Shown here piece by piece: positions 12,560 through 37,940 of a DNA stretch of 44,015 nt. A program made the translations under genes and the position numbers. The DNA comes from a bacterium (GTDB lineage: Bacteria; Myxococcota_A; Bradymonadia; UBA7976; UBA1532). Below the pieces are notes generated by a model. That model searched no databases. It was not told where the DNA came from and saw only the letters and a program-made list of their open reading frames with translations. Every line of letters begins with the position of its first letter. The stretch's first letter is position 1. Location: NCBI GenBank assembly GCA_030427205.1, contig JAUHXC010000011.1:1-44015 (forward strand), in the 5' to 3' direction.

Positions 12560-12697
12560 CCGTCCCCCTCGTTCGCGTCTCGGTGGTTCGCGTCGTATTG
12601 GTCGATTCACGCGCGGATGATGTGGTGACGGCGCGATGCGAGTCAAACGACGGGTCGGTGACGGACGCGAGGGCGCGCGGCGCCGCGCCGAACGGGG

Positions 12698-13999
12698 TCA
12701 GAGCTTCTCGTAGTCGGCCGGCTCGTCGGCCGGCGCCGGGCGCTCGACGGGGCGCGCGTCCCGGGGTCTTACCGGGCGCCTCGGGCGGGGTCGCACCGGG
12801 CGCTCGGCGGGCGGGCGGGCAGCGGGCGTCGTCGTCTTGCGCGGGCGCAGGGGGCGGGCGGCGTCGGGCTTCGCATCGGGCGCCGCTGCGTCGACGGGCG
12901 CGGGCGCCGCGTCGGGCGCGGCGGCGTCGGGTACGGCCGCGTCGGGCGCGGCGGCGGCGGGCTGGGCGGCGGGCTGCACCGCGGCGGTCAACGGGTCCGC
13001 GGGCGGCGGCGCGGTCGTCGCCGGCGCGCCGTCGCGCAGCAGCAGGAAGACGACGACGATCGCCAACGCCGCCACCGCGGCGATCCAGGGCCACGGCGTC
13101 GGGCGGGCGGGCGGCGGCTCGAGCGGCGCGTCGATCGCCGGCCGCGCGCTGGGCGGCGGCGGGCCGTCCATGCGCGGCAGCGGGCCGGTGCTGACCATGG
13201 TGTCCGACATCGGCCGCCCGCTGGGGGTGAGCCCGATCGAGACCGCGCGCTCGATCGGACCGAGCACCGCGACCGCCGAGGGCGGGCGCTGGCCGGGCGA
13301 GCGACGGCAGAGCCCGTCGAGCACCTCGAGCAGCGGCAGCGGCACGCCGGGCAGGGGCCGATGGGCGGCCTCGGTGGGCGACAGGCCGCCGAGCAGCGCC
13401 CGGCCGATCACGCCCAGCGCGTACAGATCGGTGCGCGCCTCGACCGGCGCGGCGTCACGCTGCTCGGGCGCGGCCCAGGGGCTCGTGCCGTAGGCGAAGG
13501 GGGTCTCGGCCAGCCCGACGCCCGCGAGCCGCACGTAGTCGGCGCGGCCGGTCGTCTGCTGCAGCAGGATGCATTCGGGTCGCAGGCCGCCGTGAAAGAG
13601 GCCGCGTCCGTGGGCTTCGGCGAGCACCCGCGTGAGCTGGCGCAGGATGTCGGCGACCCGGTCGGGCGGCTGGGCCTGGCCCATCAGCGCGCTGAGCGGC
13701 TCGCCTTCGACGCGGCTCTCGACGAGATAGAGCCCCGTCTCGCCCGCGCCGGCGTCGAGCACCGGCACCACCGCGGGGTGGTCGAAGCCGACGACCCGCT
13801 GCAGGGTGCGCTTGAGGCGCATGGCCTCGGCGGTGCCGCCCGGCGCCTGATGCACGATCACCCGGCGCCCGGTGGGCAGATACACCGCCTCGTGCGATCC
13901 ATCGGCCCTGCGGTCGCCGAGTCGATAGCGACCGTCGAGCGTCACCCCGCCGAAGTCGGCGGTCTCGCGTCCTCTGTCCACGGGGGCAGCACACCGCAA
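12698..13999 (-). CDS. Membrane-anchored pseudokinase. It has a Ser/Thr protein-kinase-like fold with degenerate catalytic motifs (VIVHQ instead of VAIK; HGGLRPECILL instead of HRDLKPENIL; LAGVGLAE instead of DFG; APE and D.YALG retained). A TM helix (WPWIAAVAALAIVVVFLLL) and a Pro/Ala/Arg-rich tail follow.
   Basis: Kinase subdomain order recognisable, but the catalytic Asp, the DFG Asp and the VAIK Lys are all substituted. Confidence 0.65.
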   Translation of the reverse strand: MRCAAPVDRGRETADFGGVTLDGRYRLGDRRADGSHEAVYLPTGRRVIVHQAPGGTAEAMRLKRTLQRVVGFDHPAVVPVLDAGAGETGLYLVESRVEGEPLSALMGQAQPPDRVADILRQLTRVLAEAHGRGLFHGGLRPECILLQQTTGRADYVRLAGVGLAETPFAYGTSPWAAPEQRDAAPVEARTDLYALGVIGRALLGGLSPTEAAHRPLPGVPLPLLEVLDGLCRRSPGQRPPSAVAVLGPIERAVSIGLTPSGRPMSDTMVSTGPLPRMDGPPPPSARPAIDAPLEPPPARPTPWPWIAAVAALAIVVVFLLLRDGAPATTAPPPADPLTAAVQPAAQPAAAAPDAAVPDAAAPDAAPAPVDAAAPDAKPDAARPLRPRKTTTPAARPPAERPVRPRPRRPVRPRDARPVERPAPADEPADYEKL

Positions 14000-22205: not shown

Positions 22206-22317
22206 ACGGGCCGGCGCCGCGCGGGCACCGCGGCAGAAAACTTCCCCGGCCGTTGGTTGTCCTCAGCCTCGAATCGGCGGTATGACGCCCCACCCACCCC
22301 AGGAGAGGGGACCCCCC

Positions 22318-23037
22318 ATGGCTCGACAAGCCCCCCAGCCCGGTGACGAGATCGACCTCGACGCGTGGCTCACCGAAGACGGCGAAGACGCCGCGCCGCC
22401 GCCCCGCCGGGGGGTGACGATGCGCCACCCGCTGATGTTGCTCGCGGTCTTGGGGGTGGCGGTCTTCCTCTTCGTCGAGAGCTGGCCCCGCACCGCCTAC
22501 ATGATCGCCGAGCCGATCGAGTGCGGCGACATCTCCCAGCGGCCGCACCTGCGGCAGAGCACGCCCGAGACCCTGCCCGAGCTGCCCACCGACGGCCTGT
22601 GCCGGCTCAAGGGGGTCTCGCAGTCCCGGGGCAACCTGGCCACCGGCGAGCCGCGGGAAGATACCGAAGACCCCTACGAGAAGAACGCCGGGCGCAAGAT
22701 CTACGTGAAGCTCTTCGGCGATCGGGTCTTCGCCGTCCTGCCCGCCGACCGCGAGGTCATCGGCTATCGCCTGCGCAACGAAGGGCTGGTGGGCTACGAG
22801 ATCGACGCCGTCGGCCGCTTGTTCGACCCCGACGCGGTCGAAGGCTACGCCGATACTGCCCGCACCCTGCGCCTGAAGTTCTCGCTGGGCAGCGACCAGC
22901 CGCTGCGCATCTTCGACGCCACCGACGATCCCGCCGACCGCTGGCCCTACGCGATCATCTCGGTGGTGCTGCTGCTGACCGCGCTGCTGGCGGCCTTCGG
23001 GCTGCTGCGCATGGTGCTCGGGGCGCGGCGACGCTGA
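22318..23037 (+). CDS. Hypothetical bitopic membrane protein (TM near residue 45 and a C-terminal TM) with a central soluble domain of unknown function.
   Basis: ATG at 22318 with an AGGAGAGGGG RBS. Two hydrophobic helices; no recognisable domain. Confidence 0.5.
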   Translation: MARQAPQPGDEIDLDAWLTEDGEDAAPPPRRGVTMRHPLMLLAVLGVAVFLFVESWPRTAYMIAEPIECGDISQRPHLRQSTPETLPELPTDGLCRLKGVSQSRGNLATGEPREDTEDPYEKNAGRKIYVKLFGDRVFAVLPADREVIGYRLRNEGLVGYEIDAVGRLFDPDAVEGYADTARTLRLKFSLGSDQPLRIFDATDDPADRWPYAIISVVLLLTALLAAFGLLRMVLGARRR

Positions 23038-23055
23038 GCGCCGCGGCGGGTCGGG

Positions 23056-25707
23056 CTACTCGCCCGGCTGGTAGGTCGACAGCGCGCGGGTCAGATCGGG
23101 CGGCAGCCGGCCGTCGGCGGCGACCAGCGGCTGCACCCGCGGGCCGAGCAGCAGGCCAGCGGTCGGGCCATCGACCGGCACCCGGGCCACCGGCACGTAG
23201 GGCAGCGCCTCGAGCAGCGCCTCTTCGATCTTGCCGTAGAGCGCGCCCCGCGCCGTGGCGTCGGTCGTGGCGGACGCCTCGCCGATCCATGCGGTGATCT
23301 CGGTGCCGTCGACGCCCGGGCCACGCTCGACGAGCCGGGCCAGCGTGCGCAGGAAGGGCAGCGGATCGCCGCCGATGCGGCCATCGGCCACCTGCACGAA
23401 GACCGCGTCGAGCTGCCGATCGGCCAGCGTCGAGCGCAGCTGGTCGCGGCTGATGATGCTGAGCACGACCTTGAGCCCGATCGCCCGCAGCTGCGAGGCG
23501 AGCACCCCGGCCACCGCCTGGTCGCCTTCGATGGTGCCGAGCAGCAGCGGCGCGGTGGAGTCCACCTCGGCCATCAGCGCCCGGGCCCGATCGAGGTCGT
23601 AGGCCAGGGCGTCGGCATCGGCAGCGAAGCCGAGCTGGCCCGCTTCGAGGATGCGGTGCTGGGGCTCGACCGCCCGGGCCAGCGCGCCGGCCAGCTTCGC
23701 CCGATCGAGGGCCAGCGCGATGGCGCGGCGGACGCGGGCGTCGCTCTGGGGTCCATCGCCGAGGAAGAGCAAGCCGTAGTGAGCCATGGCGCCGGCGTCG
23801 ACCAGCGGCGCCGCCCGCACCCGATCGGACGCCGCCTTCAGCGCCGGCTGCATCGCGCGCGGATCGGCGAACACCTCGGCCGCCAGCGGCACCCGGGCCA
23901 GATCGAGGCGTTCGGCGCTCACCGCCGCCAGCGCCGCCGCGGCGCTCTCGACGCGGTCGATGTTGAGCACGGCCGGGCCGGCGGTGTTCTTCCAGCGACC
24001 CTCGGCGGCGCGGACGAGGCGGTATTCGCCGTCGTGCGGCGCCGATTCGAAGCGGAAGGCGCCGCTGCCCACCGGGCGATTGAAGCGCCGCGGGTCGTCG
24101 CACTCGTCGATGCCGGCGGGCAGCAGCCGCACCGCGCCGAGCGGGTGCACCGCGTAGGCCCTCGGCCGGGTATAGACCACCTCGACGCCGCCGGTGGGCA
24201 GCGCGGTGACCGACCGCACCCCATCGTCGGCGAGGCCGGTGGTGAAGCGGCGGGCGTACTCGATCGACCACGCCAGATCGGCGTCGGCGGCCGGGCGGCC
24301 GCCTTCGACGCAGGGGTGATCGTGAAAGTGCACGCCCTCGGCCAGCGAGACCTGCACCCGGGTGCCGTCGGGGGCCGCCGTCCAGCGGCCCACCGCGCCG
24401 GGGGCCGGGTTGCCGTCGGGCTTGATGCGAACCAGCCGCTCGACGACGAGGTCGATGACCATCGAGGAGGCGCTGTCGGTCGCGGGGTAGGTCTCGAGGA
24501 TGCCGCGGTCGGTCGTCCAGCCCATGGTCAGCTCGAGCGGGCCGGCGGGCGCGGGCGCTGCGGGCGGCGCGGTGGGCTGGGGCCCGGGCGCGGCGGTCTC
24601 GGGCGCGACGCTCGGGGCCGGCACCGGCTCGGGGGCGCGCACGAACATCGCATACAGCGCGCCGAGGCAGCCGGCGAGCAGCACGCCCACCACCCCGAAG
24701 AGCAGCCAGTTGGTGCGCTGCTCCTGGCTCATCGGCGGCGGCGCTTCTTCTTCGGTGCCGTGGCTGATGATCGCGGTGGCGAAGACCGGCGTATCGTCGC
24801 CGCCGGGCCGCCGCACGATCGGCGCGCTGACCGCGCCGCTGAACGGCGCGATCGCCGCCCGCATGGCGCCCGCGTGCACGTAGCGATCGGAGGGTTTCTT
24901 GGCCAGCGACTTGTGGATCACCGCCTGCAGCCCCTCGGGCGCCACGTCGGCGTCGGGCGGGGTCGCGTCGCGGTGCTGCTGCATGATCGCGATGGCGCTC
25001 TTGCCGGTGAACGGCAGCCGACCCTGGATCAAACGGAAGAGCAGCACGCCCACCGCGTAGATGTCGGTCGCCGGGCCGATCTCCTTCTGGTCGATCTGCT
25101 CGGGCGCCATGTACGTCGGCGTGCCCAGGGTCAGGCCCATGCGGGTGATGCGCTTGCCCTGGGCGTCCTCCTCGAGGATGCGGGCGATGCCGAAGTCGAG
25201 CACCCGCACCGTCTCGCGGCCGTCGGGGCCGAGCACGAGCATGATGTTCGACGGGTTGATGTCGCGGTGCACGATGCCGCGGCCGTGGGCGTCCTGCAGC
25301 GCCTGCAATATCTGGGTGCACAGCTCGATGGCCCGAGCCACCGTCACCGCGCCCTCGCCGTCGAGCAGCTGCTGCAGCGAGCGCCCGTGGATGAGCTCCT
25401 GCACGATGAAGACGATGCCGTCGGGCTCTTCGCCGCAGTCGAGCAGCCGCACCGCGTAGGGGGTGTCCATCTGGGCCATGACCCGGGCTTCGCGCATGAA
25501 GCGCGCCCGGCTGGCCTCGGCGCTCTCGGCGTCGGTCAGCTGCGGGTGCAGCACCTTCACCGCCACCTCGCGGTCGGCGATGCGGGCGCGATAGACCGCG
25601 CCGAACGTGCCCTTGGCCAGGGGGGCCTGGATGATATAGCGCCCGCCCAGGGCCCGCCCGATGAGCGGATCGCTTTCGACGTTGGGGTCGTCCGGCGGCG
25701 TCACCAC
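23056..25707 (-). CDS. Ser/Thr protein kinase (catalytically competent: [23 protein letters not shown]) - TM helix - extracytoplasmic solute-binding protein family 5 (peptide/nickel SBP-like) domain.
   Basis: All Hanks kinase motifs intact in the N-terminal 290 aa. A single TM helix ([23 protein letters not shown]) follows. The C-terminal ~480 aa show the SBP_bac_5 pattern (MGWTTD...ETYPATD..., [15 protein letters not shown]). GTG start at 25707. Confidence 0.75.
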
Positions 25708-25866
25708 GGTCCTCCGAGCATTCGCGCCGCGGGGCCTTCGGGCGGCGGACGGTCAACCGCCGGCGCTCGCCCGGAATCGGGCCCCACTCCGGGGGGGATC
25801 CTAACCGGGATCGTGCCGGATCGCATCAATCGCGAATCCGGCCCGCTCCACGGCCGGATGGACTCT

Positions 25867-26691
25867 TCAGATCCGGCGGTGGTCGCGCAGCGGGATCGAG
25901 CGGCGCACCGCGGCGGTGCGCTCGGGGTCGATCTCCGCCAGACACAGCCCCTCGCCATGCCCGCGATCGGCGAGCACCACGCCCCACGGGTCGATGATGA
26001 CGCTGTGCCCGTAGCTGCGCCGCTTGCCCTCCGCGTCGTGGGTCCCCCACTGCGCCGGCGCCAGCACGTGGCACTCGGTCTCGATGGCCCGGGCCCGCAG
26101 CAGCGCGTGCCAGTGGTCCTTGCCGGTGGTCAGGGTGAACGCCGACGGGATGCAGATGATGTCGGCGCCTTTGTCGACCAGGGCCCGGTACAGCTCGGGG
26201 AAGCGCAGGTCGTAGCAGATCGACAGGCCGATGTTGCCCAGCGCCGTCTCGGCGACGACGACCTCGTCGCCGGGCGCGATGGTGTCCGACTCGCGGATGG
26301 TCAACCCGCCGGGCACGTCGACGTCGAAGAGGTGCATCTTGCGGTAGGCCGCGAGGCGCTGCCCATCGGGGCCGAAGAGGATGCTCGTATTGTGGCAGCG
26401 CGTCTTGTCGATCTCACCGCCGGGCAGGATGCGCCGCTCGGCGAGGCTGCCCACCAGCAGGTGGATCGACAGCTCATCGGCCAGGGCCGCGAACCGCCGG
26501 GCGATGGGCCCGTCGATGCCCTCGGCGAGGTCGACCTTGTGAAACTGCGGGCCGAGGAACGCGGTGTTCTCCGGGGTGGCGACGAACGCCGCGCCGAGCC
26601 GGGCCGCGCGCCGGATCTGATGCTCGGCGGTCTCCAGGTTGCGCTGGATGTCGGTGGTGCAACGGAGCTGGACGCAGGCGGCGAGGAACAT
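25867..26691 (-). CDS. Carbon-nitrogen hydrolase (nitrilase/amidase superfamily) protein.
   Basis: CN-hydrolase catalytic triad context: E (ATPENT), K (YRKMHLFD), C (GLSICYDLRFPE). Start at the ATG at 26691 (MFLAACVQLRCTT). Confidence 0.8.
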   Translation of the reverse strand: MFLAACVQLRCTTDIQRNLETAEHQIRRAARLGAAFVATPENTAFLGPQFHKVDLAEGIDGPIARRFAALADELSIHLLVGSLAERRILPGGEIDKTRCHNTSILFGPDGQRLAAYRKMHLFDVDVPGGLTIRESDTIAPGDEVVVAETALGNIGLSICYDLRFPELYRALVDKGADIICIPSAFTLTTGKDHWHALLRARAIETECHVLAPAQWGTHDAEGKRRSYGHSVIIDPWGVVLADRGHGEGLCLAEIDPERTAAVRRSIPLRDHRRI

Positions 26692-26824
26692 CGGGACCCC
26701 CGTGAGGTGAAGCGAATGCCGGCATTGTGGTGGCCCCGCCCCGGCGGTGGCAAGGGGCCCGACCGCAGCGCGCCCCATGGTAGATTGTCACCCGCCGATA
26801 CGACGCCGCGCCCGCTGGAGCCCG

Positions 26825-27742
26825 ATGAACCGCATCTCCGACATCGAGATCTTCGTCGCCATCGTGGCCGACGGCAGCTTCACCGCCGCCGCGCGGCGCC
26901 TGGGCGTCAGCAAGTCCCACGTCAGCCGCCAGATACAGGCCCTCGAAGACCGCCTCGGCGCCCGGCTGCTCGACCGCACGACCCGCACCGTGCGGCCCAC
27001 GGACGCCGGGCTCGAGTTCAATACCCGGGCGCTGAAGGTGCTCGCAGAGCTCGACGAGGCCGAGCGGGCGGTGCGCGACCTGCAGAGCGAGCCGCGGGGG
27101 GTCCTGCGCGTCGGGGCGCCGGTCTCGTTCGGGCTGCGCTACGTGGCCCCCGCGGTGGCGTCCTTCATGAGCCGCTGGCCCGAGCTGCGGGTCGAGGCGT
27201 CCTACAGCGACGAGCGGGTGGACGTCATCGGCGACGGCTTCGACGTCGTGGTGCGCATCGGCCAGCTCGCCGACTCGAGCCTCATCGTGCGCCGGCTGGC
27301 CCGCACCCGGGCCCACATCGTCGGCAGCCCGGCCTACTTCGACCGCCATGGCGCACCCGAGACCCCCGATGCGCTCGCCGACCACGCCTGCCTGCGCTAC
27401 GCGCATCAGCTCAGCGGACACGGCTGGACCCTTTGGGGCCCCGACGGCGAGCGCACCGTGCGTATCGACGGGCCGCTGCTCGCCGACAACGGCGACGCGC
27501 TGCTCGTCGCCGCCTGCGCGGGCCTCGGGCTGGCCTACATGCCCGACTTCTTCGTCGGCGAAGACGTCGCCTCGGGCGCGCTGCGCACCGCCCTCGACGA
27601 CTGGACCACCCGCGAGGTGCCGGTGGCCGCGCTCTACCCCCACAACCGCCACCTCTCGGCCAAGGTCCGGCTGTTCGTCGACCACCTCGCCGAGACGCTG
27701 CGCGCCCGGCCCTGGCGCCGCGACGCCGAGGGGCAGGCGTGA
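26825..27742 (+). CDS. LysR-family transcriptional regulator, divergently oriented to the nitrilase gene.
   Basis: N-terminal wHTH FVAIVADGSFTAAARRLGVSKSHVSRQIQALEDRLGARLLDRTTR is a canonical LysR signature, and a LysR substrate-binding domain follows. Classic divergent arrangement with its probable target. Confidence 0.85.
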   Translation: MNRISDIEIFVAIVADGSFTAAARRLGVSKSHVSRQIQALEDRLGARLLDRTTRTVRPTDAGLEFNTRALKVLAELDEAERAVRDLQSEPRGVLRVGAPVSFGLRYVAPAVASFMSRWPELRVEASYSDERVDVIGDGFDVVVRIGQLADSSLIVRRLARTRAHIVGSPAYFDRHGAPETPDALADHACLRYAHQLSGHGWTLWGPDGERTVRIDGPLLADNGDALLVAACAGLGLAYMPDFFVGEDVASGALRTALDDWTTREVPVAALYPHNRHLSAKVRLFVDHLAETLRARPWRRDAEGQA

Positions 27743-27961
27743 TTTTCTGGAGCGTATTTCCGCTTTGCTTTCGCGCAGTTGATTCTTCGACGAGATTTTT
27801 TCTCCGACCGGGGAACTAAATCGGGCGGCGCCTCGTTTCACCCACCGAGACGACGGAGCACCTCCTTCCCCCAGCAACTCCCCCGCTCCGCAGTCTCACG
27901 GGTGATTCACACCCGGCCCGACCCCGTTGCTCCCCCGACGCGGTCAGGCCGAATCACCCCG

Positions 27962-28281: not shown

Positions 28282-31200
28282 ATGACCCGCTCGGATCGCA
28301 TGCCCACACCCCGCGATACGATGACCCTGCGACTCGGTGAGCCGTCGCGGATCGATCCGCCCGACGCGCGCTTCTGGGTGCAGCACTGCGCGCAGCTGCA
28401 GCGGCGGGCGGCGGGCATGCGGGCGTCGGTCGAGCAGGCGCGGCTCCACGGGCAGCGGGCGTATGTGCTCGACGAGATGCTCGATGACCGCGCGGCGGCC
28501 GAAGAGGCGTGGAAGGCGGCGCTCGTGGCCCAGCCGGGTTATCTGCCCGCGCTGCTCGCCCTGCGCGATCGGGCCCTGGAGAGCGACGCCCGCAGCCTCG
28601 CCGAGACCCTGGCCGACGTGCACCTGCCGGCGCTGGCCGACAGCGAAGACGTCGACCGGCGGGACATCGCCGAGCTCGCGGCCTTCTTCGGGCTGATCTG
28701 GCTCTTCCGCTGGCCCGACGCCGACCGCGCCGCCCACGCGCTGCTGCGGCTCGAGGCGGTGGGCGATCCGCTGGGGCTGGCCGAGCGGCTGCTGCACCTG
28801 TGCCTCGACGGCGCCGGGCAGGTGACCCGGTGGCGGGCGCGCGCCGAGCGACTCGAAGGGCCCGAGCGCGCCGCGCTGCTCGCCGAGCTCGGCCGGCACC
28901 TCGTCGACGACCCCGACGTGGCCGCCGAGGGCTGGCAGCTGCTCGCCGAGGCCGCCGGGGCCGACCCTGTCGCCGGCTGGTATCGCGTCGAGCAGGCGCT
29001 GGTCATGGGCGAACCCAGCGCGTTGGCCCGGGCGCTCGAGACCCTCGCGGGCCTCTGCGAAGGGGTCGGGGCGGCCATCCTGCGATTCCTCGCCGCCGAG
29101 ATCTGGGAGCTGGTGCTGGGCCAGGTCGACAAGGCCGAAGCGCTCTACGCGCAGGTCACCGGCGGCGGCCTGCGGGCGGCCATCGCGCTCAAGCAGATCG
29201 TCAGCGACGCCCGCCAGTTCTCCGACGACCCGCTCGGCATGTCGGCCAGCCTGGCCGAGCAGGCCGACAGCATCGGCGACGCGCGCCTCGAGGCGGTGCT
29301 CTACCTGCGCGCGGCCCAGCTCGCCGCGGTGGCCAACGACAGCGCGAGGGCGCGCGACGCGGCCGGCGCGGCGCTCGAGCGCTGGCCGGAGGACGACCGC
29401 GCGCGCCATCTGGTCGAACGCATCGTCTGGCAGGCCGCCGAGTGGCACGACCTGCGGGCCCTCATCAACCGCGCCGCCGGCGGCGACATCGCCCGGCTGC
29501 TGCGGGCGGCCATCCTCGAGCACGCCGTGCAGGAGCCGGCCAGCGCCCTCGGCGCGCTCGGATCGGCGACCAGCGAGGCCCCCGAGCTGCTGCACCTGCG
29601 CACGCGGCAGCGGCTCTCGCAGCACCTCGTGGCCGGCGACGACCTGCGCGAAGCCGAGGCCCGGGTGCGGGCGTGGCAATACGAGGCCAACCTGCTCGAC
29701 GCCAGCGACCGACGGGCCGAGCTGTACCTGCGCATCGCCCGCTTCTATCTGGCCCATACGGCGCAGCACGAGAAGGCGCTGACCTACCTCTTCTGGGCCC
29801 TCGATCGCGACCCGAAGAACCTCACCGTGCTGCGCATCATCGAGCACTGCTGCCGCCAGACCGGCCGCCAAGGTCCGCTGGTGAAGGCGCTCGACCAGAC
29901 CGTCGAGCTGCTCGACCGCCCCGCCGACCGCTTCCCGCTGCGCCGTGAGCTGGCCGAGATCCAGGCCGCCGCGGGCGCGCCGACCGATACCCTCGTCGAC
30001 CTCTACCGGGCCGCGCTCGCCGAAGAGCCGACCGACGCCAGCACCCAGGCCGACCTCGAGCGGCTCTATCGCCACGCCCGGCGCCACGACGACCTCAAGG
30101 GCCTCTACGAGCAGATGCTGCGCAGCGCCGACGGCCCCGAGGCGCGGGCCTCGGTCGCGGTGCGCTTCGGCCCGCTGCTCGTCGAGCAGTTCGACGACGC
30201 GGTGGCCGCGCTGCGGCTCTACGACCGGGTCATGCCCGATACCCCCGACGGCCCGCTGCGCTCGCGGCTGGAGATGCTGCAGACCGAAGCCGCCGCCGCC
30301 GGTGGGCTCTCCGGCAGCCTGCCGGCGCTCAACACCGTCGAGATCGAAGCCCTCGAGCGCTCCTCGATGGACTTCGACTTCGGCGAGGCCGACATCGACG
30401 AGCTGCTGACGGTGGTCTCCGACCCCCGGGCCGAGTCCGATCCGGGCGAGATCGCGCCGCCGCCGCTGCCGCCGCTGCTGCCGATGGCGCCCACCGAGGT
30501 CGACAGCAAGATCCGCAGCCCGCTGCCCACCGACGAGGTCCGCGCCGCCGACGCCGTGCGGCCGGCCGATCGACCCTCGGGGCGCACCGGCCTGCTCGAC
30601 TCGGGCCGGGCCGCGGTGCCGCCGCCGCTCGACGTCGACGACGAGATCGAGTTCTTCGAATTCGAGGTGGACGAAGACGACGCCGAGCTGAACGGCTCGG
30701 TCGAGCTCTCGCCCGAAGACCTCGCCGAGGCCGGCCCGCCGCCGCCGGCGCCCATCACCGACCGCACGACCGGCTTCCTCGGCGCCGAGCGCGCCGGCGA
30801 GGGCAAGCGCGACCGCAGCCGGGCGGTCATCGCCCGCAAGCTGCGCCGCAGCCGCAACAAGCAGCCCACCGACGAGTTCGCCGACTTCGGCGAGCCGTCG
30901 CTGGTCGAAGCGGTCGAGATGTACGGCGCCGCCGAAGACTTCGATACCCGGCTGCGGGCCGTCGCCGAGCTGGCCCGGCGCTACGAGGCCGCCGGCCGAC
31001 CGCTCGAAGCCATCCGCGCGTGGCGCACCGTGCTCGGCTTCCGGGCCGGTGACGGCGAGGCCATCCGCCACCTCGAGCAGCTCTACCGCAGCACCGAAGA
31101 CTGGCGCGGGCTGGTGGAGATATTGGCCGGCGAGGCCACCCGCACCGGCGACCGGGCCCGGCGGCAGGCGCTGCTCTTGGAGGTCGCCCGGCTCGAATGG

Positions 31201-34200
31201 CGGGCGCTGGAAGACGCCGGGGCCGCGGTCAACCACTTCCTCGAAGCCCTCGACCTGGGCGTCGTCGACCGCGAGACCATCGCCGAGCTCGCCGGCGCGG
31301 TGCGCGCGGTCAAGCGCTGGCCGGCCTACGTCGACGCGCTGGCCCGGGCCGGCCTCGACGACCCGGCGCACATGAGCCCCGAGGGCGCCATCGACCTCGG
31401 CCGGGTCCACCTCTACGAGCTCAGCGACCCGGCGCGGGCGGTGCCCTACCTCGTCACCGCGGCGCGGGCGCTGCCCGAGCGGGTCGACATCGCCGCCGAC
31501 CTGGCCGAAGCCCGGGCGGGCCTGGGCGAGGTCGACCGGGCGGTGGCGCTCTTGACCCGGGCGATCCAGGCGGCCGTCGACCTCGGCCCCGACGCGCGCA
31601 ACGTGCTGCGCCTGCGCCTCGCCCGACTGTACGAAGAGCACGCCGCCGACAGCCGGGGCGCCTTGCACGTCTACCGCGACGCGCTGGCCGAGGGGCTGTC
31701 CGACCCGGCGGTACTCGACCGCGTCGACCACCTGGCCACCGCCGCCGAGGACTGGCACACCCTCGCCGCCGTGCTCGAGCGCAACCTCGAAGAGGCCCGC
31801 GGCGGCGACCCCGAAGAGGTGCGCCCGATCGCCATCCGCCAGGGCCAGCTGCTGCTCAAGCGCCTCGAGCGCCCGCGAGAGGCCGCCACCGCCTTCGTCG
31901 AAGCCTACGTGCTCGACCCGGCCGACGAAGGCGTCTTCCGGCTCGTCGAGGGCATCCTGCGCAAGCACCCCGACCCGGCGCTGCAGGCGCGGCTCTACGC
32001 CGCCTGGCTCGACGGCGGCGAGCGCAGCCTCAAAGAGCGGCTGACGATGTCGCTGCGGCTGGTGGCGGCCCACGAGGCCGAAGGCCGGCTCGACGCGGCC
32101 GCCGAAGTGCTCGAAGAGCTGCGGGCGCGCATGCCGAACGACGGCGAAGTGCTCGCCGCGCTCGAGCGGGTCTACCAGAAGGCCGGCCGCTGGGACGAGC
32201 TGGTGCAGATGTACCACCAGGCCCTCGACACCACCGGCGACCCCCAGATCCGGGGGCGCCAGCTGCGGCGGCTGGCGCGAGCGTACGAGGTCGGCCTGCG
32301 CGACCTGCCCCGGGCCACCGAGGTCTACCAGACGCTCTTCGCCGAGCAGCCCGACGATACGACCACCCTCAAGGCGCTCGCCCGACTGCTCGAAGGCCAG
32401 AAGCGCTGGGACGAGCTGCTCGAGATCAGCACCCGCGAGCTGGCGCTGACCGACAAGCCGCGGCAGAAGGCGTTCATCCACTTCCGCATGGGCAGCCTGC
32501 ACGAGTCGCAGCTCGGCGATCACGCGGCGGCCGGCGCGGCGTACCACCGCGCGCTGGAGCTCGACCCGCGCTGCTTCCCGGCGCTGCACGGCCTGCGCGA
32601 GCTGGCGGCCAACGCCGGCGACTGGCCGACGGTGGTCGCCCACCTCGGCCGCGAGCTCGAGCTGTGGGACGAACCCAAGGAGCGCGCGGCGGTGCTCTCG
32701 CGCATCGGCGAGATCTACGAGCGCCAGCTCGACGACACCGCCGAGGCCGACGCCCACTACGCCCGGGCGCTCGATACCCACGCCGGCTGCATCCCCGCCG
32801 CCCGGGCCCTCGCCCGCCGCGCGTGGCAGGCCGGCGACTGGGAGGCCGCCGCGCCGCACCTGCAGGTGCTCACCAACCAGAACCTCGACAAGCTGCCCCG
32901 CTCGACGTCGAGCAAGCTCTTCTATCGGCGCGGCGTCGTCGCCCGCAACCTGGGCCGGCAGCTCGAGGCCATCGAGAGCCTCAAGCTCGCGCTGGAGTTC
33001 GACGGCAGCAACGCCGAGGCGCTGCACGCGCTGGTCGAGACCTACGCCGGCCAGGGGACCGACGACGACGGGCTCTCGGCGCTGCTCAAGCAGCTCGCCG
33101 AGAACCGCGCGACCCACGTCGAAGCCGGGCGCATGGACGAGGTGGCCCGCATCGACGTGCTCTCGGGGCTCGCCGCCGAGCATCAGCTGCGCCTCGACGA
33201 CGCGGAGGACGCCTACCGCCGCGCCTGCGAGGCCCGCCCCGACGACCCCGACGTGCTGCGGCCGCTGATCGAGCTGCTGCTCAAGCGCCGCCTGTGGAGC
33301 GACGCCACCGCCGCGCTGCGCACCTTCGCCGACCGCTTCTTCGACGCCGCCCTCGACCGGGCCGACGCGCGGGCCGCCTGGGTCGACGCCACCTTCTGGG
33401 AGGGCGAGATCTGGTCCGACATGGCCGTCGACCCGGCCCGGGCCATCGCCTGCTACGCCGCGGTGCTCGCCGTCGACCCCGACAACCGCGAGGCCCGCTA
33501 CCGCACCGCGCAGTGCCACTACCTGATGGGCGTCTTCGACGAAGCCGCCGAGATCGTCGACGAGCTGCTGACCCACGGCGGGCTGCCCGCCGGCGAGCGG
33601 GCGCGCTACACCTTCTATCGGGGGCGTATCGAGCAGGTCGGGCTGCACGACGAGGGCGCCGCCCGCGCGCTCTACGCCGAGGCGCTGCAGGTCGACCGCC
33701 ACTGCGCCCGGGCGCTCATCGCCCTCGGCCGCAGCCTGCTCGACGCCGACGAGACCGACGGCGTCGTCGACCTGCTGCGCGAGCATCAGGCCCTCATCGA
33801 GGCCCCCGACGACGGCGACCCCGACCTGGCGGCGCTCAAGACCTTCGCCGCCGGCGTCTGGCACCGCCACGGGCAGAGCGACGTGGCCTTGCGCCTGCTC
33901 ACGCCGCTGGCCCAGGGCATCACCGCCGGCGCCCGCGACGCCCGCTTCTGCCTCGCCCGGGTGCACGAGAGCCGCGGCGGGTTCGACGCCGCCGCCGCCC
34001 AGCTCGAGCGGACCCTGGCCGACGACGTCTGCGACATCGCCGCGCTGCGGGCCCTCGCCGGGCTGCGCATGCGCCAGGGCGACGACGAGCGCGCGCTGTG
34101 GGTGCTGTCGGTGCTCGAGCTCTACGGCGCGCTGAACCCCGACGAGCGGGTGACGTGGGGCACCCTGCGCGACCGCAACCGCAAGCAGCGCGACCGCGGG

Positions 34201-35004
34201 GGCCACACCCTCGCCGACGGCGTCTTGGAGCGGGTGATGCTGCACCCGTCGTTCAAGAGCCCGCTGGTCACGCTGATGGCGTTGTGCGCCGACGACCGCC
34301 CCATCCGGCCGCCGCCCACGCTGCGCCGCGCCGAGCGGGTCAACGGCCAGCGGCACACCTTCACCCTCGAGCTCGAGGCGGTGCAGAGCCTGCTCGGCTA
34401 TCGCGACTTCGACCTCTACTTCATCGGCGACCACCCCGAGCTGGTGGCGCTGTGGCCCGCCGAGCCGCCGTTGATGGTGCTCGGCGCGCCGGCGCTCGGC
34501 GACCGCTGCACCACCGCCGAGCGCCGGTTTCTGGTGGGCCGGGCGGCGTTCTACGGCAAAGCCGGGCTGACTCGACTGCACGACGCCGGCCCCGAGCAGG
34601 CCCTCGACCGCATCGCCCGGGTCGGCGGCCTCGTCAGCCGCCGGGCCGACCTCGATCGCCGCACCGACCCGCTGCTCGCCGGCCTGCCCGACCGCGCCAT
34701 CGACACCATCGCCGAGCTGGTGCAGCGGGTGGGTGAGCACACCCTGCCGCCGCTCTACACCGGCGAGCAGGCGTTGACCGGCGTCGCGTGCACCGCCGAC
34801 CGCGCGGGCCTGCTGGCGAGCGGGTCCTTGCGGGCCGCCGTCGAGATGCTCACCCGCCACGCGGGGGTCGGCGAGACCATCGAGCGCGGCGACGACCTCG
34901 GCTGGGCGGTGCGCAGCGGGTCGCGGCTGCGCGACCTGGTCAAGTATGCTCTCTCCGACGCGTTCACCGAGCTCCGCGCCGAAGCGGGCCTCGGGATCTC
35001 GTAG
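28282..35004 (+). CDS. Giant (2240 aa) tetratricopeptide-repeat (TPR) protein with a central acidic/Pro-rich low-complexity region (aa ~690-860).
   Basis: Dozens of TPR-like 34-aa units (e.g. AYHRALELDPRCFPALHGLRELAANAGDW; ADAHYARALDTHAGCIPAARALARRAW). The minus-strand ORF 28234..35019 is an antisense artefact. Confidence 0.8.
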   Translation: MTRSDRMPTPRDTMTLRLGEPSRIDPPDARFWVQHCAQLQRRAAGMRASVEQARLHGQRAYVLDEMLDDRAAAEEAWKAALVAQPGYLPALLALRDRALESDARSLAETLADVHLPALADSEDVDRRDIAELAAFFGLIWLFRWPDADRAAHALLRLEAVGDPLGLAERLLHLCLDGAGQVTRWRARAERLEGPERAALLAELGRHLVDDPDVAAEGWQLLAEAAGADPVAGWYRVEQALVMGEPSALARALETLAGLCEGVGAAILRFLAAEIWELVLGQVDKAEALYAQVTGGGLRAAIALKQIVSDARQFSDDPLGMSASLAEQADSIGDARLEAVLYLRAAQLAAVANDSARARDAAGAALERWPEDDRARHLVERIVWQAAEWHDLRALINRAAGGDIARLLRAAILEHAVQEPASALGALGSATSEAPELLHLRTRQRLSQHLVAGDDLREAEARVRAWQYEANLLDASDRRAELYLRIARFYLAHTAQHEKALTYLFWALDRDPKNLTVLRIIEHCCRQTGRQGPLVKALDQTVELLDRPADRFPLRRELAEIQAAAGAPTDTLVDLYRAALAEEPTDASTQADLERLYRHARRHDDLKGLYEQMLRSADGPEARASVAVRFGPLLVEQFDDAVAALRLYDRVMPDTPDGPLRSRLEMLQTEAAAAGGLSGSLPALNTVEIEALERSSMDFDFGEADIDELLTVVSDPRAESDPGEIAPPPLPPLLPMAPTEVDSKIRSPLPTDEVRAADAVRPADRPSGRTGLLDSGRAAVPPPLDVDDEIEFFEFEVDEDDAELNGSVELSPEDLAEAGPPPPAPITDRTTGFLGAERAGEGKRDRSRAVIARKLRRSRNKQPTDEFADFGEPSLVEAVEMYGAAEDFDTRLRAVAELARRYEAAGRPLEAIRAWRTVLGFRAGDGEAIRHLEQLYRSTEDWRGLVEILAGEATRTGDRARRQALLLEVARLEWRALEDAGAAVNHFLEALDLGVVDRETIAELAGAVRAVKRWPAYVDALARAGLDDPAHMSPEGAIDLGRVHLYELSDPARAVPYLVTAARALPERVDIAADLAEARAGLGEVDRAVALLTRAIQAAVDLGPDARNVLRLRLARLYEEHAADSRGALHVYRDALAEGLSDPAVLDRVDHLATAAEDWHTLAAVLERNLEEARGGDPEEVRPIAIRQGQLLLKRLERPREAATAFVEAYVLDPADEGVFRLVEGILRKHPDPALQARLYAAWLDGGERSLKERLTMSLRLVAAHEAEGRLDAAAEVLEELRARMPNDGEVLAALERVYQKAGRWDELVQMYHQALDTTGDPQIRGRQLRRLARAYEVGLRDLPRATEVYQTLFAEQPDDTTTLKALARLLEGQKRWDELLEISTRELALTDKPRQKAFIHFRMGSLHESQLGDHAAAGAAYHRALELDPRCFPALHGLRELAANAGDWPTVVAHLGRELELWDEPKERAAVLSRIGEIYERQLDDTAEADAHYARALDTHAGCIPAARALARRAWQAGDWEAAAPHLQVLTNQNLDKLPRSTSSKLFYRRGVVARNLGRQLEAIESLKLALEFDGSNAEALHALVETYAGQGTDDDGLSALLKQLAENRATHVEAGRMDEVARIDVLSGLAAEHQLRLDDAEDAYRRACEARPDDPDVLRPLIELLLKRRLWSDATAALRTFADRFFDAALDRADARAAWVDATFWEGEIWSDMAVDPARAIACYAAVLAVDPDNREARYRTAQCHYLMGVFDEAAEIVDELLTHGGLPAGERARYTFYRGRIEQVGLHDEGAARALYAEALQVDRHCARALIALGRSLLDADETDGVVDLLREHQALIEAPDDGDPDLAALKTFAAGVWHRHGQSDVALRLLTPLAQGITAGARDARFCLARVHESRGGFDAAAAQLERTLADDVCDIAALRALAGLRMRQGDDERALWVLSVLELYGALNPDERVTWGTLRDRNRKQRDRGGHTLADGVLERVMLHPSFKSPLVTLMALCADDRPIRPPPTLRRAERVNGQRHTFTLELEAVQSLLGYRDFDLYFIGDHPELVALWPAEPPLMVLGAPALGDRCTTAERRFLVGRAAFYGKAGLTRLHDAGPEQALDRIARVGGLVSRRADLDRRTDPLLAGLPDRAIDTIAELVQRVGEHTLPPLYTGEQALTGVACTADRAGLLASGSLRAAVEMLTRHAGVGETIERGDDLGWAVRSGSRLRDLVKYALSDAFTELRAEAGLGIS

Positions 35005-35042
35005 GCGCAATCGGTACACGGACCCACAGACCGGCGAGCGGT

Positions 35043-35855
35043 ATGTCCAAGAAGTTCTCCCTGGGTGCCAATACGGTCGAAGACGTCACCTTCCTCAAGG
35101 TCAGCGGCGTCGTCGACGAGGACAACACCCTCGCCAAGAGCCTCAAGAAGATCGACGGCCGCACCGTGGTCATCGACCTCAGCGGGGTCGAGCGCATCAA
35201 CAGCTGCGGGGTGCGCGACTGGGTCAACTGGCTCAACGACCTCGACGCCAAGGGCAAGCGGGTCGTGCTGGTGCGCTGCAGCCCGTGCATCGTCAATCAG
35301 GTCAACCTGGTCAACAACTTCGTCGGGCGCGGCCGGGTGAAGAGCTTCTTCGCCCCCTACTTCTGCCCGCGCTGCGACACCGAGCAGCTCAAGCTCCTGC
35401 AGGTCGAAGACTTCGCCGGTATGGACCGCCCGCGGGCCCCCGACGTGCGCGGCGACGGCTGTCAGCAGGCCCGCTGCGAGATGGAGTTCGACGACCTCGA
35501 GGCGGCCTACTTCGCCTTCCTGCCGCGCAATACCGGCCAGGTGGTCGACACCGGCCTCAAGAGCCTGCTCGACGACCTCAGCCCTTCGATCCGCGACCGC
35601 ATCAAGCGGCTCGACAGCGTGCAGCAGAACGCCGACCCGGAGAAGACGCCCATCAGCGGCATGTACAGCCCGCTGACCGTCACCCGGACCCAGCTGAGCA
35701 TCAACAAAGGCGGCGCGCCGGCCGACGAGGCGCCCGAAGCGCAGACCGAGCAGGTGCGCACCCGCAGCAGCCTGGGCGTGATCCTGACCGCCGCGGCGCT
35801 GCTGCTCGTCGGCGGGCTCATCGCCTACGTCGTATTCTTCATCGGGGGGGGCTGA
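35043..35855 (+). CDS. STAS-domain (anti-sigma-factor antagonist-like) protein fused to a 4-Cys zinc-ribbon (CPRC...CQQARC) and a C-terminal TM anchor.
   Basis: STAS signature VVIDLSGVERINSCGVRDWVNWLNDL. Cys pairs in the CxxC...CxxC arrangement. C-terminal hydrophobic helix LGVILTAAALLLVGGLIAYVVFFIGG. The ORF track's upstream extension is rejected; ATG at 35043. Confidence 0.65.
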   Translation: MSKKFSLGANTVEDVTFLKVSGVVDEDNTLAKSLKKIDGRTVVIDLSGVERINSCGVRDWVNWLNDLDAKGKRVVLVRCSPCIVNQVNLVNNFVGRGRVKSFFAPYFCPRCDTEQLKLLQVEDFAGMDRPRAPDVRGDGCQQARCEMEFDDLEAAYFAFLPRNTGQVVDTGLKSLLDDLSPSIRDRIKRLDSVQQNADPEKTPISGMYSPLTVTRTQLSINKGGAPADEAPEAQTEQVRTRSSLGVILTAAALLLVGGLIAYVVFFIGGG

Positions 35856-35856
35856 G

Positions 35857-36372
35857 GTGGCCGACGATACGCTCGACCGCATCCGCGACGTGGGCGCGGT
35901 GTTCATCGACCCCTGGGTCGCCGTCGACCGCAGCGGCGAGGTGGTCGACTTCAACCCGCACTTCCGGGCCCTGCACAACCGACAGAACGCCCGCAAGCTG
36001 CAGGGCAGCCCGCTGTCGACCTACGTGCACCTCGACCTGCCCGTCGACCCCGTCGCGCAGTGCCTCGAAGAGGGCAAGCCGGTGCGCTACGACGAGATCC
36101 AGGTCACCATCGAAGGCGAAGAGGCCGCCCGGCCGTTCATCATCAGCGCCGCGCCCGTCGGCAGCGGCCACGTGCTGCTGCTGCTGCGCGACGTCTCCGA
36201 CGCCGCCGCCGTGCAGCGCAAATACAAGACGATGCTCGACCGCGAGACCAAGGAGAAAGAGCGCCTGCAGGACGAGATCGGCCGCAAGACCAAAGAGCTC
36301 GTCGACACCAACATGGAGCTCAACCGCACCCAGAAAGAGCTGATGCGGTTCAAGAAGGGGCTCTTCGGCTGA
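35857..36372 (+). CDS. Small PAS-like sensor domain protein with a C-terminal coiled coil.
   Basis: PAS-like fold pattern (GAVFIDPWVAVDRSGEVVDFNPHFRAL...); charged heptad-rich tail. GTG start 1 nt after the upstream stop, and its stop overlaps the next start (TGATG). Confidence 0.5.
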   Translation: MADDTLDRIRDVGAVFIDPWVAVDRSGEVVDFNPHFRALHNRQNARKLQGSPLSTYVHLDLPVDPVAQCLEEGKPVRYDEIQVTIEGEEAARPFIISAAPVGSGHVLLLLRDVSDAAAVQRKYKTMLDRETKEKERLQDEIGRKTKELVDTNMELNRTQKELMRFKKGLFG

Positions 36373-37940
36373 TGCTCAAGTCGCTCAACAGCCTGCCCAT
36401 CAGCTTCAAGCTGATGATCACCACGACGCTGCTCCTGCTCTTCACCGTGGGCCTCTATGGCGCGATGAACGTGCAGAACCTGGGCGCGGCCTACGACGAC
36501 TCCCGCCGCGACCAGGAGGAGCTGACCCTGCAGGCGGCGACCCAGAGCGCGCGCAACGTCACCACCCTGCTCGCGTTCTCCGCCCGCTCGTTCATCGCCG
36601 CGACCGCCTACGGCGACATCCAGAACCTGCTCGACACCCTCACCGAAGACGACCCGCGGCTGGTCTACGCCCGGGTGTACGACGGCGACACCCCGGTGGC
36701 CACCCAGGGCGACCCCGACAAGGCGCTGGCCAATACCCAGCGCTTCGCCGACGCCCGGGTCGAGACCACCAAAGGCGTCGAGGTGCTCACCCGCGACGGC
36801 GAGCTGCACATGGTGCGGGTCGAGGTGCCCTTCGAAGGCGCCGAGGGCAAGGTGGAGATCGGCCGCTCGATCGCCGAGATCAACGAGCACAACGCGCGCA
36901 TCCGCGAGGCCACCGCCAAGAGCCGCAAGGCGGCGACCATCAACGCGCTGTTCGTCGGCGGCATGATCATCCTGCTCGGGGTGGTGCTCAACATCCTGCA
37001 GGCCCTGCGCATCAGCCGGCCCATCCGCGAGCTGACCGACAGCGTCGAGCGCATCGCCCACGGCGACCTCGGCGAGCGGGCGGTGGTCGACAGCACCGAC
37101 GAGATCGGCGTGCTCGGGCGCAACTTCAACTACATGGCCGAGCGGCTCGGCATCCTCATCAAAGAGACCGAAGAGCGGGCGACCTACGAGAAGGAGATGG
37201 AGGTCGCCCGCATCATCCAGGAGTCGCTGCTGCCGCCCAACCGGCTGATCACCCGCGGCGACTTCCAGTTCGCCGGCTTCTTCAAGAGCGCGAGCATCTG
37301 CGGCGGCGACTGGTGGAACTTCGCCGAGATCAGCGACGGCCGGCTCTTGCTGCTCATCGGCGACGTGACCGGCCACGGCGTCTCGTCGGCGATGATCACC
37401 GCCGCCGCCAAGTCGTGCTGCGATACCCTGCGCCACGTCACCGAAGGCGAGCTGACGGTCACCTTCCTGCTCGAAGAGCTCAACAAGACCATCTACGAGG
37501 CCGCCAACCGCCGCTTCGTGATGACCTTCTTCGCCACCATCATCGACCCCGCCGAGCGCACGCTGACCTTCAGCAACGCCGGCCACAACTTCCCGCTGCT
37601 CTTCCGGGCCAACCCCGCCGACGGCGAGCCGGCCATCGTGCCGCTCATCACCCGCGGCAACCGGCTGGGCGACGTGATGGACAGCCGCTTCCTCGAGCGC
37701 ACCGTGCCCTACGGCAAGGACGACGTCATCGTCTGGTACACCGACGGCATCACCGAGGGCCTGGGCAAGACCGGCGACGAGTACGGCGAGAAGCGCTTCC
37801 GGCGCAGCATCCGCTCGGCCCTCGACCGCCCCGCCGACCAGATCCTCGACAAGATCCTGGGCGACGCCGAGGCCTACTTCGCCGACTTCGCGCACCCCGA
37901 GGACGACATCACCCTCGTCGTGGGCCGCTTCACCGGCTGA
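36372..37940 (+). CDS. Membrane sensor Ser/Thr phosphatase of the PP2C/SpoIIE (RsbU-like) family: TM - periplasmic domain - TM - HAMP - PP2C.
   Basis: HAMP (ISRPIRELTDSVERIAHGDLGERAVVDSTDEIGVLGRNFNYMAERL) and SpoIIE/PP2C motifs (GGDWW, GDVTGHGVSSAM, YTDGITE, DDITLVVGRF). The ORF track's upstream extension is rejected; ATG at 36372. Confidence 0.8.
   Translation: MLKSLNSLPISFKLMITTTLLLLFTVGLYGAMNVQNLGAAYDDSRRDQEELTLQAATQSARNVTTLLAFSARSFIAATAYGDIQNLLDTLTEDDPRLVYARVYDGDTPVATQGDPDKALANTQRFADARVETTKGVEVLTRDGELHMVRVEVPFEGAEGKVEIGRSIAEINEHNARIREATAKSRKAATINALFVGGMIILLGVVLNILQALRISRPIRELTDSVERIAHGDLGERAVVDSTDEIGVLGRNFNYMAERLGILIKETEERATYEKEMEVARIIQESLLPPNRLITRGDFQFAGFFKSASICGGDWWNFAEISDGRLLLLIGDVTGHGVSSAMITAAAKSCCDTLRHVTEGELTVTFLLEELNKTIYEAANRRFVMTFFATIIDPAERTLTFSNAGHNFPLLFRANPADGEPAIVPLITRGNRLGDVMDSRFLERTVPYGKDDVIVWYTDGITEGLGKTGDEYGEKRFRRSIRSALDRPADQILDKILGDAEAYFADFAHPEDDITLVVGRFTG

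Follow-up and report, generated by a model that had tools for sequence, protein, structure and literature searches.

A single open reading frame (ORF) that joins a protein kinase to a solute-binding protein (SBP) raises the question of whether the SBP part serves as the extracytoplasmic sensor of a receptor kinase and, if so, what it senses and what it controls. Such an ORF lies in a 44,015-nt stretch of DNA (the whole of which is called "the window" here; positions 1 to 44,015 of contig JAUHXC010000011.1, assembly GCA_030427205.1) from a bacterium of the lineage Myxococcota_A. A first-pass annotation, made from the sequence alone, had described an active Hanks-type Ser/Thr kinase fused through one transmembrane (TM) helix to a periplasmic SBP_bac_5 domain. 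The ORF itself (23056..25707, minus strand, 883 aa in the ORF list of the window) and the order of kinase, single TM helix, and family-5 SBP domain were borne out by Pfam, an AlphaFold2 model, fold matching, and hydrophobicity. We consider it moderately likely that the protein is a single-pass receptor Ser/Thr kinase with a periplasmic family-5 Venus-flytrap sensor, in which ligand-controlled association would switch autophosphorylation, and that it works in a module with a LysR regulator and an amidase.

The receptor kinase gene begins with two consecutive GTG codons, the first of which gives the 883-aa length. A GGAGG motif precedes the first GTG by 3 nt and the second by 6 nt, and the NCBI protein identical to the window protein (P0163) has 882 aa; given that call and the position of GGAGG, translation probably starts at the second GTG (25704). 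The stop codon occupies 23056–23058, and the GC content at third codon positions (GC3), 0.94, is what real genes show in this window of 73% GC. Pfam placed Pkinase (PF00069) at residues 29–277 (E 5.9e−44, 150.9 bits against a cut-off of 31.7, profile positions 6–253 of 263) and SBP_bac_5 (PF00496) at residues 434–788 (E 1.4e−23, 84.1 bits against a cut-off of 32.4, profile positions 2–359 of 368), so that the C-terminal region assigned to family 5 (residues ~400–883) does match that family above its cut-off. In the AlphaFold2 model of the full-length protein (mean predicted local distance difference test [pLDDT] 86.8), confident kinase and C-terminal domains were joined by a disordered–helix–disordered stretch, consisting of residues 292–334 (disordered), a single helix at 334–356, and a disordered Pro/Ala linker at 357–378.

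From these data, the following layout was drawn, with all coordinates on the minus strand. The PknB-like Hanks-type kinase domain, placed in the cytoplasm, spans residues 29–290 (24838..25623; pLDDT ~90–98 outside the activation loop), and the cytoplasmic juxtamembrane segment spans residues 291–334 (24706..24837; pLDDT <50 for 292–334). The single TM helix corresponds to residues 335–357 (24637..24705) and is followed by an extracytoplasmic, flexible linker that is rich in Pro and Ala (residues 358–392; 24532..24636; pLDDT <50 for 357–378). The remainder, residues 393–883 (23059..24531), is a complete family-5 (cluster C) solute-binding fold according to Pfam, AlphaFold2, Foldseek, and profile comparison with PDB. 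A scan of genome contigs found a full-length orthologue with 70% identity in a metagenome-assembled genome (locus L001), whereas the other five loci found were generic kinases. The juxtamembrane segment is 80% identical between the window protein and L001 (35 of 44 residues), and the linker only 51%.

When the ectodomain was modeled alone with a 100-sequence alignment, AlphaFold2 gave a pLDDT of 96 and a predicted TM-score of 0.93. Foldseek against PDB returned full-length matches (E ~1e−28, TM-score 0.72–0.75, ~500 aligned columns, 15–19% identity), including H. pylori DppA, AapF, NikA, AgaA, GbpA, SapA, and others. In the profile search against PDB, the order was AgaA (3e−40; agropinic acid), an aminoserine-bound SBP, AapF (HEHEAA), HbpA, GsiB/YliB, CtaP, and NikA, with DppA and OppA ranking behind these small-ligand binders. 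The ectodomain also carries the generic family-5 signatures FH..., A-x-D-[LV]-x-[FYW]-S, PVG(T/S)GPF, and VRRA..A.DR.

The closest relatives of this ectodomain are themselves mostly fused proteins. The ectodomain by itself was compared with 1.84 billion representatives in an exhaustive HMMER search. The best matches were mostly long proteins (650–980 aa) in which the match lay at the C-terminus, and free transporter-type SBPs appeared further down the list, with E-values weaker by tens of orders of magnitude. When the 60 longest close ectodomain relatives (50%-identity representatives) were scanned with Pfam, every one had SBP_bac_5, accompanied by Pkinase in 38 and by Guanylate_cyc (class III cyclase) in 19. 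Beyond the orthologue group, the nearest relative is itself fused to a kinase (E 2e−80); a word-index search with the same ectodomain returned 12 weak free SBPs (best E 2e−8) and missed the fused family. Because the best matches are kinase and cyclase fusions and free SBPs are far weaker, the ectodomain belongs, by these profile matches, to a family-5 subclade dedicated to signaling proteins. A separate profile search of protein databases recovered the window protein itself and five further orthologues (P0164–P0168), all with Pkinase and SBP_bac_5, and the orthologues come from four independent assemblies, including the L001, L007/L008, and L009 loci. An origin of the fusion by chimeric assembly or frameshift was rejected, since the architecture is common to independent assemblies and dozens of relatives. 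Database entries call these proteins simply "protein kinase", and in one cluster the name given is "protein kinase [Myxococcales bacterium]".

The cyclase fusions (P0017, P0019, P0021, P0023, P0025, and others) have their TM helix at approximately residue 190–205. The gene for one of them, P0017 (locus L011, 5001–7169), lies just downstream of genes for GH88 and heparinase II/III, a hint that this protein may bind a glycan fragment.

A pair of cysteines sets the fused proteins apart from free SBPs. In the family-5 signature region, the fused proteins have a six-residue insertion (FHxHPC...), and a second Cys follows ~70 residues on (GC(E/D)D); in the window protein these are C466 and C536 (24100..24312, minus strand). 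Both Cys were present in 58 of 59 fused proteins and neither in 31 free SBPs, which also lack the insertion, and over the whole alignment 67 sequences had both, 32 had neither, and one had a single Cys. In all four orthologues, the ectodomain contains two Cys and no more. From this clade-specific pattern in the alignment, C466 and C536 probably form a structural disulfide.

Between the two domains, there is only one strong hydrophobic segment (residues ~335–357, 19-residue Kyte–Doolittle peak of 2.27); the one other window above 1.6 in the protein is borderline (1.61 at residue 734) and lies inside the SBP fold. An equivalent clear TM helix was present in 52 of the 60 family members, and in these 52 the 15 residues beside it contained on average 3.3 Lys and Arg on the catalytic side versus 1.8 on the SBP side. 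Lys and Arg were more numerous on the N-flank in 37 proteins and on the opposite flank in 7 (Wilcoxon p = 7e−7). These data support an N-in/C-out topology with a cytoplasmic kinase; the SBP domain is predicted to be extracytoplasmic because the pattern of the Cys pair fits an oxidizing location and because of the positive-inside bias across the family. The single-TM receptor layout of the first-pass annotation therefore stands, and we saw no sign of a C-terminal domain outside family 5 or of one placed in the cytoplasm.

What the ectodomain may bind was considered by aligning E. coli DppA, OppA, NikA, and GsiB with the family by two methods, after the numbering of the anchor residues had been confirmed. 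The Asp that anchors the peptide α-amino group (DppA D408/OppA D419) aligned with G776, a position occupied by P, D, G, R, or H in the family, and the adjoining D775 is Gly in L001. For the carboxylate Arg, DppA R355 lies in a stretch that the family lacks, and OppA R413 aligned with F770. The Ni ligand of NikA, H416, aligned with E794 or a gap, R137 with an absent segment, and R97 with G491 or a gap; the NCBIfam model nickel_nikA scored 34.7 bits, below its cut-off of 393. The earlier description of the domain as oligopeptide/nickel-binding-like is thus right for the fold and family (SBP_bac_5, cluster C) and wrong for the binding site, where both the peptide and the Ni anchors are absent. 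SBP_bac_5 has no clear ligand preference as a family, its ligands including peptides, Ni chelates, glutathione, sugars, haem, and opines (PMC10443332). From the aligned sites, we infer that the ligand would be a small periplasmic molecule that is neither a canonical peptide nor a nickel chelate.

In the mechanism that we favor, a small periplasmic ligand would bind between the two lobes of the SBP domain, and lobe closure would alter the association of the ectodomain with itself or with a partner. The proximity or dimerization of the cytoplasmic domains would then change, rather than a rigid piston or rotation being transmitted, since the tethers on both sides of the membrane are long and, in the AlphaFold2 model, disordered. 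This would switch trans-autophosphorylation of the activation loop and phosphorylation of substrates, as has been described for PknB, PknD, and PrkC (PMC6213207, PMC13147305). Class III cyclases are obligate dimers, and a dimerization mechanism would fit the sharing of one sensor clade by kinases and class III cyclases, both of which depend on dimerization. The extracytoplasmic regions of bacterial Ser/Thr kinases typically bind ligands and promote dimerization and autophosphorylation (PMC13147305, PMC6213207). The sign could equally be the reverse, with an autoinhibitory ectodomain that is relieved by the ligand, as suggested for PknS (PMC13147305).

Whether the kinase domain can carry out its part of this mechanism depends on how its catalytic loop is read. 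Its best PDB matches were PknB, StkP, and PknA (E ~4e−42), and it keeps VAVK51, E73, D149, N154, DFG (D171), APE201, D215, and R275, together with Thr residues in the activation loop; the β3 Lys (VAVK51), the αC Glu (E73), and the DFG Asp (D171) are conserved in the orthologues and in the wider family. The catalytic loop, expected as HRDxKxxN and aligned with HRDVKPAN of PknB, reads HRDINPSN (residues 147–154; 25246..25269, minus strand), with Asp149 and Asn154 present and Asn151 in place of the Lys. All four orthologues carry Asn151, including where kinase identity falls to 78%, whereas most members of the fused family carry HRDLKPxN and a few carry Ser. The Lys is kept in 118 of the 120 nearest non-orthologous kinase domains and is Thr in the other two, so that the Lys-to-Asn change is, on this comparison, a derived state. 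In the Gly-rich loop, AKGTFGAV, the second and third Gly of GxGxxG are present and the first is Ala, while other family members have GxGxxG. The Hanks-type assignment made at first pass is therefore sound (Pfam, PknB-like), and the adjective "active" is plausible but goes beyond what the sequence shows, given the Asn in all four orthologues. The kinase domain is 95–97% identical in the two closest orthologues, with a ratio of nonsynonymous to synonymous substitution rates (dN/dS) of 0.06–0.11 there and 0.06–0.33 over three orthologue comparisons; on the evidence of this strong purifying selection, the domain is clearly functional in some way. A second, unrelated kinase on L001 (minus strand, ~3140–3170) also has Asn for the catalytic-loop Lys (HRDLNPSNV), which suggests that the Asn variant recurs among paralogous kinases of the lineage. 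Our literature search on the HRDxN/S catalytic loop found no specific description of it.

A pseudokinase or low-activity scaffold would follow if loss of the Lys made the domain a poor phosphotransferase, in which case it would signal through ligand-controlled partner binding or allostery, or through ATP binding or hydrolysis. The catalytic-loop Lys (PKA K168) touches the γ-phosphate, and its mutation lowers kcat strongly; together with this role, the fixed, derived Asn and the missing first Gly of the Gly-rich loop argue for such a scaffold. However, pseudokinases usually lack several motifs, not one, and here the other catalytic residues (K51, E73, D149, N154, D171-F-G, and APE) and the activation-loop Thr are intact, under very strong purifying selection against the closest orthologues. 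Moreover, Asn, Ser, or Thr at the Lys position recurs in these genomes (HRDLNPSNV in L001 and HRDISPGN in L017), suggesting a tolerated functional variant, and kinases of the Rio and Bud32 types with Ser or Thr at this position still hydrolyze or transfer phosphate. We therefore regard a scaffold as unlikely and an active kinase as likely, judging from the conserved residues.

Other roles can be proposed for the ectodomain. It might anchor or localize the kinase by binding an envelope component (e.g., murein peptides, as MppA does) or a periplasmic protein, thereby positioning or clustering it. The murein-tripeptide binder MppA belongs to family 5 and is among the fold and profile matches, a long flexible linker would suit a tethered binding module, a fast-evolving surface is compatible with protein–protein interfaces, and PASTA kinases provide a precedent for the sensing of envelope fragments and for localization (PMC6213207, PMC6428115). 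Against this, the Asp that anchors the α-amino group in peptide binders of the Opp/Dpp/Mpp type is not conserved, the closest solved relatives by profile bind small molecules (AgaA, AapF, GsiB, and NikA), and the cyclase fusions of the clade at polysaccharide-degrading loci suggest different ligands for different members, so that we consider pure anchoring very unlikely. A tethered transport SBP that feeds an ATP-binding cassette (ABC) importer encoded elsewhere, with the kinase reporting its occupancy, seems extremely improbable, although membrane-tethered and permease-fused SBPs exist (the profile search found P0169, a fusion of BPD_transp_1 and SBP_bac_5) and the family member P0018 adjoins an ABC system. 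That system transports amino acids, is of the SBP_bac_3 type, and has a binding domain of its own; apart from it, no permease genes were found near six other family members. Neither the 44-kb window nor the surroundings of the orthologues contained Opp/Dpp/Nik-type permease (BPD_transp_1) or oligopeptide ATPase genes, and the fused clade is set apart from free SBPs by its Cys-bearing insertion and by its sequence (best free SBP E 2e−8 versus 2e−80 for the kinase-fused relative). A transport role was rejected on the grounds that permease genes are lacking nearby. The SBP domain is tethered to the membrane by a TM helix within the chain, after the kinase, and not by a signal peptide.

The genes beside the receptor kinase offer a lead to its signal and its target. 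The amidase gene (25867..26691, minus strand; 274 aa from an internal ATG) lies upstream of the kinase gene on the same strand, with a 159-bp spacer, and matches Pfam CN_hydrolase (E 2.9e−62, 210.7 bits); the motifs of the triad can be read in its translation, namely Glu (ATPEN), Lys (YRKMHLFD), and Cys (ICYDLRFPE). Its best NCBIfam model was "deaminated glutathione amidase" (192 bits against 500) and the second reached 131 against 355, both below cut-off, and the closest PDB entries were NitFhit (2.8e−55), mouse Nit2, and yeast Nit3 and Nit2. By these matches, the hydrolase is an amidase of the Nit1/Nit2 branch and not a nitrilase proper. Divergent from it is the gene for a LysR-family regulator (26825..27742, plus strand; 305 aa from an internal ATG; Pfam HTH_1 and LysR_substrate; YafC-like, 233 bits against a cut-off of 470). 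The first-pass annotation had placed a nitrilase and its LysR regulator as divergent downstream neighbors; a carbon–nitrogen hydrolase and a LysR gene are indeed there, but they lie upstream, the hydrolase runs in the same direction as the kinase, and only the LysR gene is divergent.

The order LysR–amidase–kinase is conserved in L001 (hydrolase 91% and LysR 77% identical), in L007/L008, and also in L009, a locus whose orthologue is distant (43% identity in the ectodomain) and whose neighbors outside these three genes all differ. LysR, amidase, and kinase are thus a conserved three-gene module in the window orthologue group. Because the kinase belongs to a module with a Nit1/Nit2-like amidase, its signal would probably, though speculatively, relate to the metabolism of an amide, such as 2-oxoglutaramate, 2-oxosuccinamate, or deaminated glutathione.

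Upstream of the amidase, in the divergent spacer shared with LysR, we found a sigma-70-like promoter, TTGCCA-N18-CACAAT (26724..26753, minus strand), the only promoter-like match in 22800–27000 (0.0 expected); TTGC and CCACAATG of this promoter are invariant in four loci. The spacer between amidase and kinase contains a block conserved in the ungapped alignment of four orthologous loci, (A/T)TGATGCG-N14-GGTTAG(G/C) (25798..25830, minus strand), which may be a promoter, an alternative-sigma promoter, or an operator for the kinase. Reading it as a sigma-54 or sigma-70 promoter was rejected because of a poor fit by eye or to sigma-70 spacing. No terminator-like site was found between amidase and kinase, an Rfam search of 22800–27900 gave no match, the block included, and the folding of the spacer was unremarkable (z = −1.9). 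Co-transcription of amidase and kinase is therefore possible, and the kinase may have a control site of its own as well.

Several points weigh against the receptor reading as a whole. The Asn that has replaced the catalytic-loop Lys may slow phosphotransfer or prevent it. Since the ligand-anchoring residues of known family-5 proteins are absent, ligand binding by the ectodomain is an assumption. The ectodomain is only 58–68% identical in the two closest orthologues, in which the kinase is 95–97% identical, and its dN/dS was 0.47–0.80 over three orthologue comparisons, absolute values being uncertain at this GC3; such fast evolution could mean weak constraint rather than tuned ligand recognition. 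The TM flanks of the window protein are themselves charge-neutral (1 versus 1), and its topology therefore rests on the family trend, the ATP requirement of a kinase, and the Cys pair, whose disulfide is a prediction from the alignment. The link to the amidase is limited to one orthologue group, and distant members have other neighbors. Finally, our literature search found no description of, or experiment on, a Pkinase–SBP_bac_5 or Guanylate_cyc–SBP_bac_5 fusion, and hence no experiment on any member of the family. As a separate observation, synonymous divergence (dS) differed about two-fold between the halves of the same gene pairs (versus L001 and L007; window 23059–25707), being 0.22–0.26 for the kinase half and ~0.50 for the ectodomain half, which could be a method artefact at a GC3 of 0.94 or could reflect different histories through recombination.

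Compared with known systems, the window protein resembles PASTA-type and other receptor Ser/Thr kinases (M. tuberculosis PknB and PknD, B. subtilis PrkC, S. pneumoniae StkP, and X. citri PknS) in its N-terminal cytoplasmic kinase, juxtamembrane linker, single TM helix, and C-terminal sensor, and it presumably shares with them a mechanism of ligand-modulated dimerization and autophosphorylation (PMC6213207, PMC13147305). It differs from them in its sensor, a 490-residue family-5 fold instead of PASTA repeats, a β-propeller, or another known Ser/Thr kinase sensor, and in a catalytic loop without the conserved Lys. The NCBIfam model PknB_PASTA_kin (NF033483) reached 246 bits against a cut-off of 450 and matched the kinase part only (positions 1–270 of 563), and Pfam found no PASTA domain. 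With the family-5/cluster C SBPs of transport (DppA, OppA, MppA, NikA, GsiB, AapF, and AgaA), the ectodomain shares its Pfam family, complete fold, and signatures; unlike them, it is neither free nor a lipoprotein, has no permease neighbors, carries the "HPC...GC" Cys pair, and lacks the anchors.

Fused Venus-flytrap receptors are alike in having a bilobed fold outside the membrane, a single- or few-pass anchor, and a dimerization-dependent catalytic domain inside. Histidine kinases of the BvgS/EvgS type use SBP_bac_3 as a fused sensor, and the eukaryotic ANF-receptor guanylyl cyclases have a fused sensor with a periplasmic-binding-protein fold; the fusion of the window clade to both kinases and class III cyclases parallels the ANF-receptor family. 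Other such receptors differ from the window protein, whose fold is of family 5/cluster C, with an extra lobe and approximately twice the size of SBP_bac_3 or type-I periplasmic binding proteins. An S. coelicolor kinase with a Glu/Gln SBP was noted by Krupa and Srinivasan in 2005 (PMC1262709), trypanosome receptor adenylyl cyclases are receptors with the Venus-flytrap fold (PMC6027212), and SBP Pfam domains serve as receptor sensor domains (PMC9602780), while the reviews by Matilla and Krell treat stand-alone SBPs that stimulate receptors and refer to SBP domains as sensors in general terms only. The only characterized pathway from an SBP to a Ser/Thr kinase is GlnH/GlnX/PknG of Actinobacteria (PMC8050422). 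There, too, an SBP provides a signal from outside the cell to a Hanks kinase, which controls the metabolism of amino acids and nitrogen (PMC8050422, PMC6069109), but three proteins are involved (a family-3 SBP, the membrane protein GlnX, and the soluble PknG), whereas here there is one polypeptide with a family-5 SBP.

Receptor Ser/Thr kinases and fused SBP sensors are thus already known, and a family-5 SBP on a Hanks kinase adds to a known design without a new principle; it extends the catalog of receptor kinase sensors and does not overturn current understanding. A kinase with an SBP-fold sensor should nevertheless be practical to de-orphanize, as such ectodomains can usually be produced as soluble protein for thermal-shift or ITC screening and their mode of ligand binding is well studied, and the conserved link to a Nit-type amidase and LysR shows where the search for ligand and target can begin. 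One sensor clade with two outputs, phosphorylation and cyclic nucleotide synthesis, provides a natural experiment on Venus-flytrap signaling through flexible tethers, and the fixed Lys-to-Asn change in an otherwise intact, constrained catalytic loop is a test case for the role of that lysine in bacterial kinases. A bolder scheme, which we think quite unlikely in its entirety, is that a family-5 SBP subclade with the disulfide-bearing "HPC" insertion left transport and became a portable single-pass receptor ectodomain for dimerization-dependent enzymes (Hanks kinases and class III cyclases), which would make it the prokaryotic equivalent of the ANF-receptor/receptor-kinase design. In the window orthologue group, it would sense a periplasmic γ-glutamyl or amide metabolite and, through a kinase that is competent without the Lys, control a Nit1/Nit2 amidase pathway that is regulated by LysR and serves to salvage nitrogen or repair metabolites.

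Elsewhere in the family, the neighbors of distant members include a prolyl oligopeptidase, an epimerase, an amino-acid ABC system, and a sigma factor, and none of these members lies in an Opp/Dpp operon. In the window, no FHA or PP2C partner gene adjoins the kinase. A cluster of STAS, PAS, and HAMP-SpoIIE (PP2C-type phosphatase) genes that resembles a partner-switching system lies 10 kb from the kinase (34788–37940, plus strand). Its PAS ORF (35857–36372) overlaps the HAMP-SpoIIE ORF (36060–37940) by ~310 nt in another frame, indicating either a later start of the HAMP-SpoIIE ORF or a frameshift. A link between the kinase and this cluster was considered and found no support, the cluster being absent from the L001 and L009 contexts examined.

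On the other side, the gene at 22282–23037 (plus strand) converges with the kinase gene, with an 18-bp gap from stop to stop, and encodes a 251-aa protein that has no Pfam or NCBIfam match and is hydrophobic near both ends. A tblastn search with it gave no match in L001 or L009, and it therefore falls outside the conserved module; in L007/L008, an unannotated 236-aa gene occupies the equivalent convergent position. A 433-aa ORF (12698–13999, minus strand) has a weak partial Pkinase match (E 1e−9, profile positions 54–198) and may be a degenerate kinase or pseudokinase. The window also encodes an eCIS_core-domain protein (973–2625, minus strand), a 2406-aa protein with six lamin-tail domains (5426–12646, minus strand), and a 2240-aa TPR protein (28282–35004, plus strand), the last of which is syntenic beside the LysR gene in L007.

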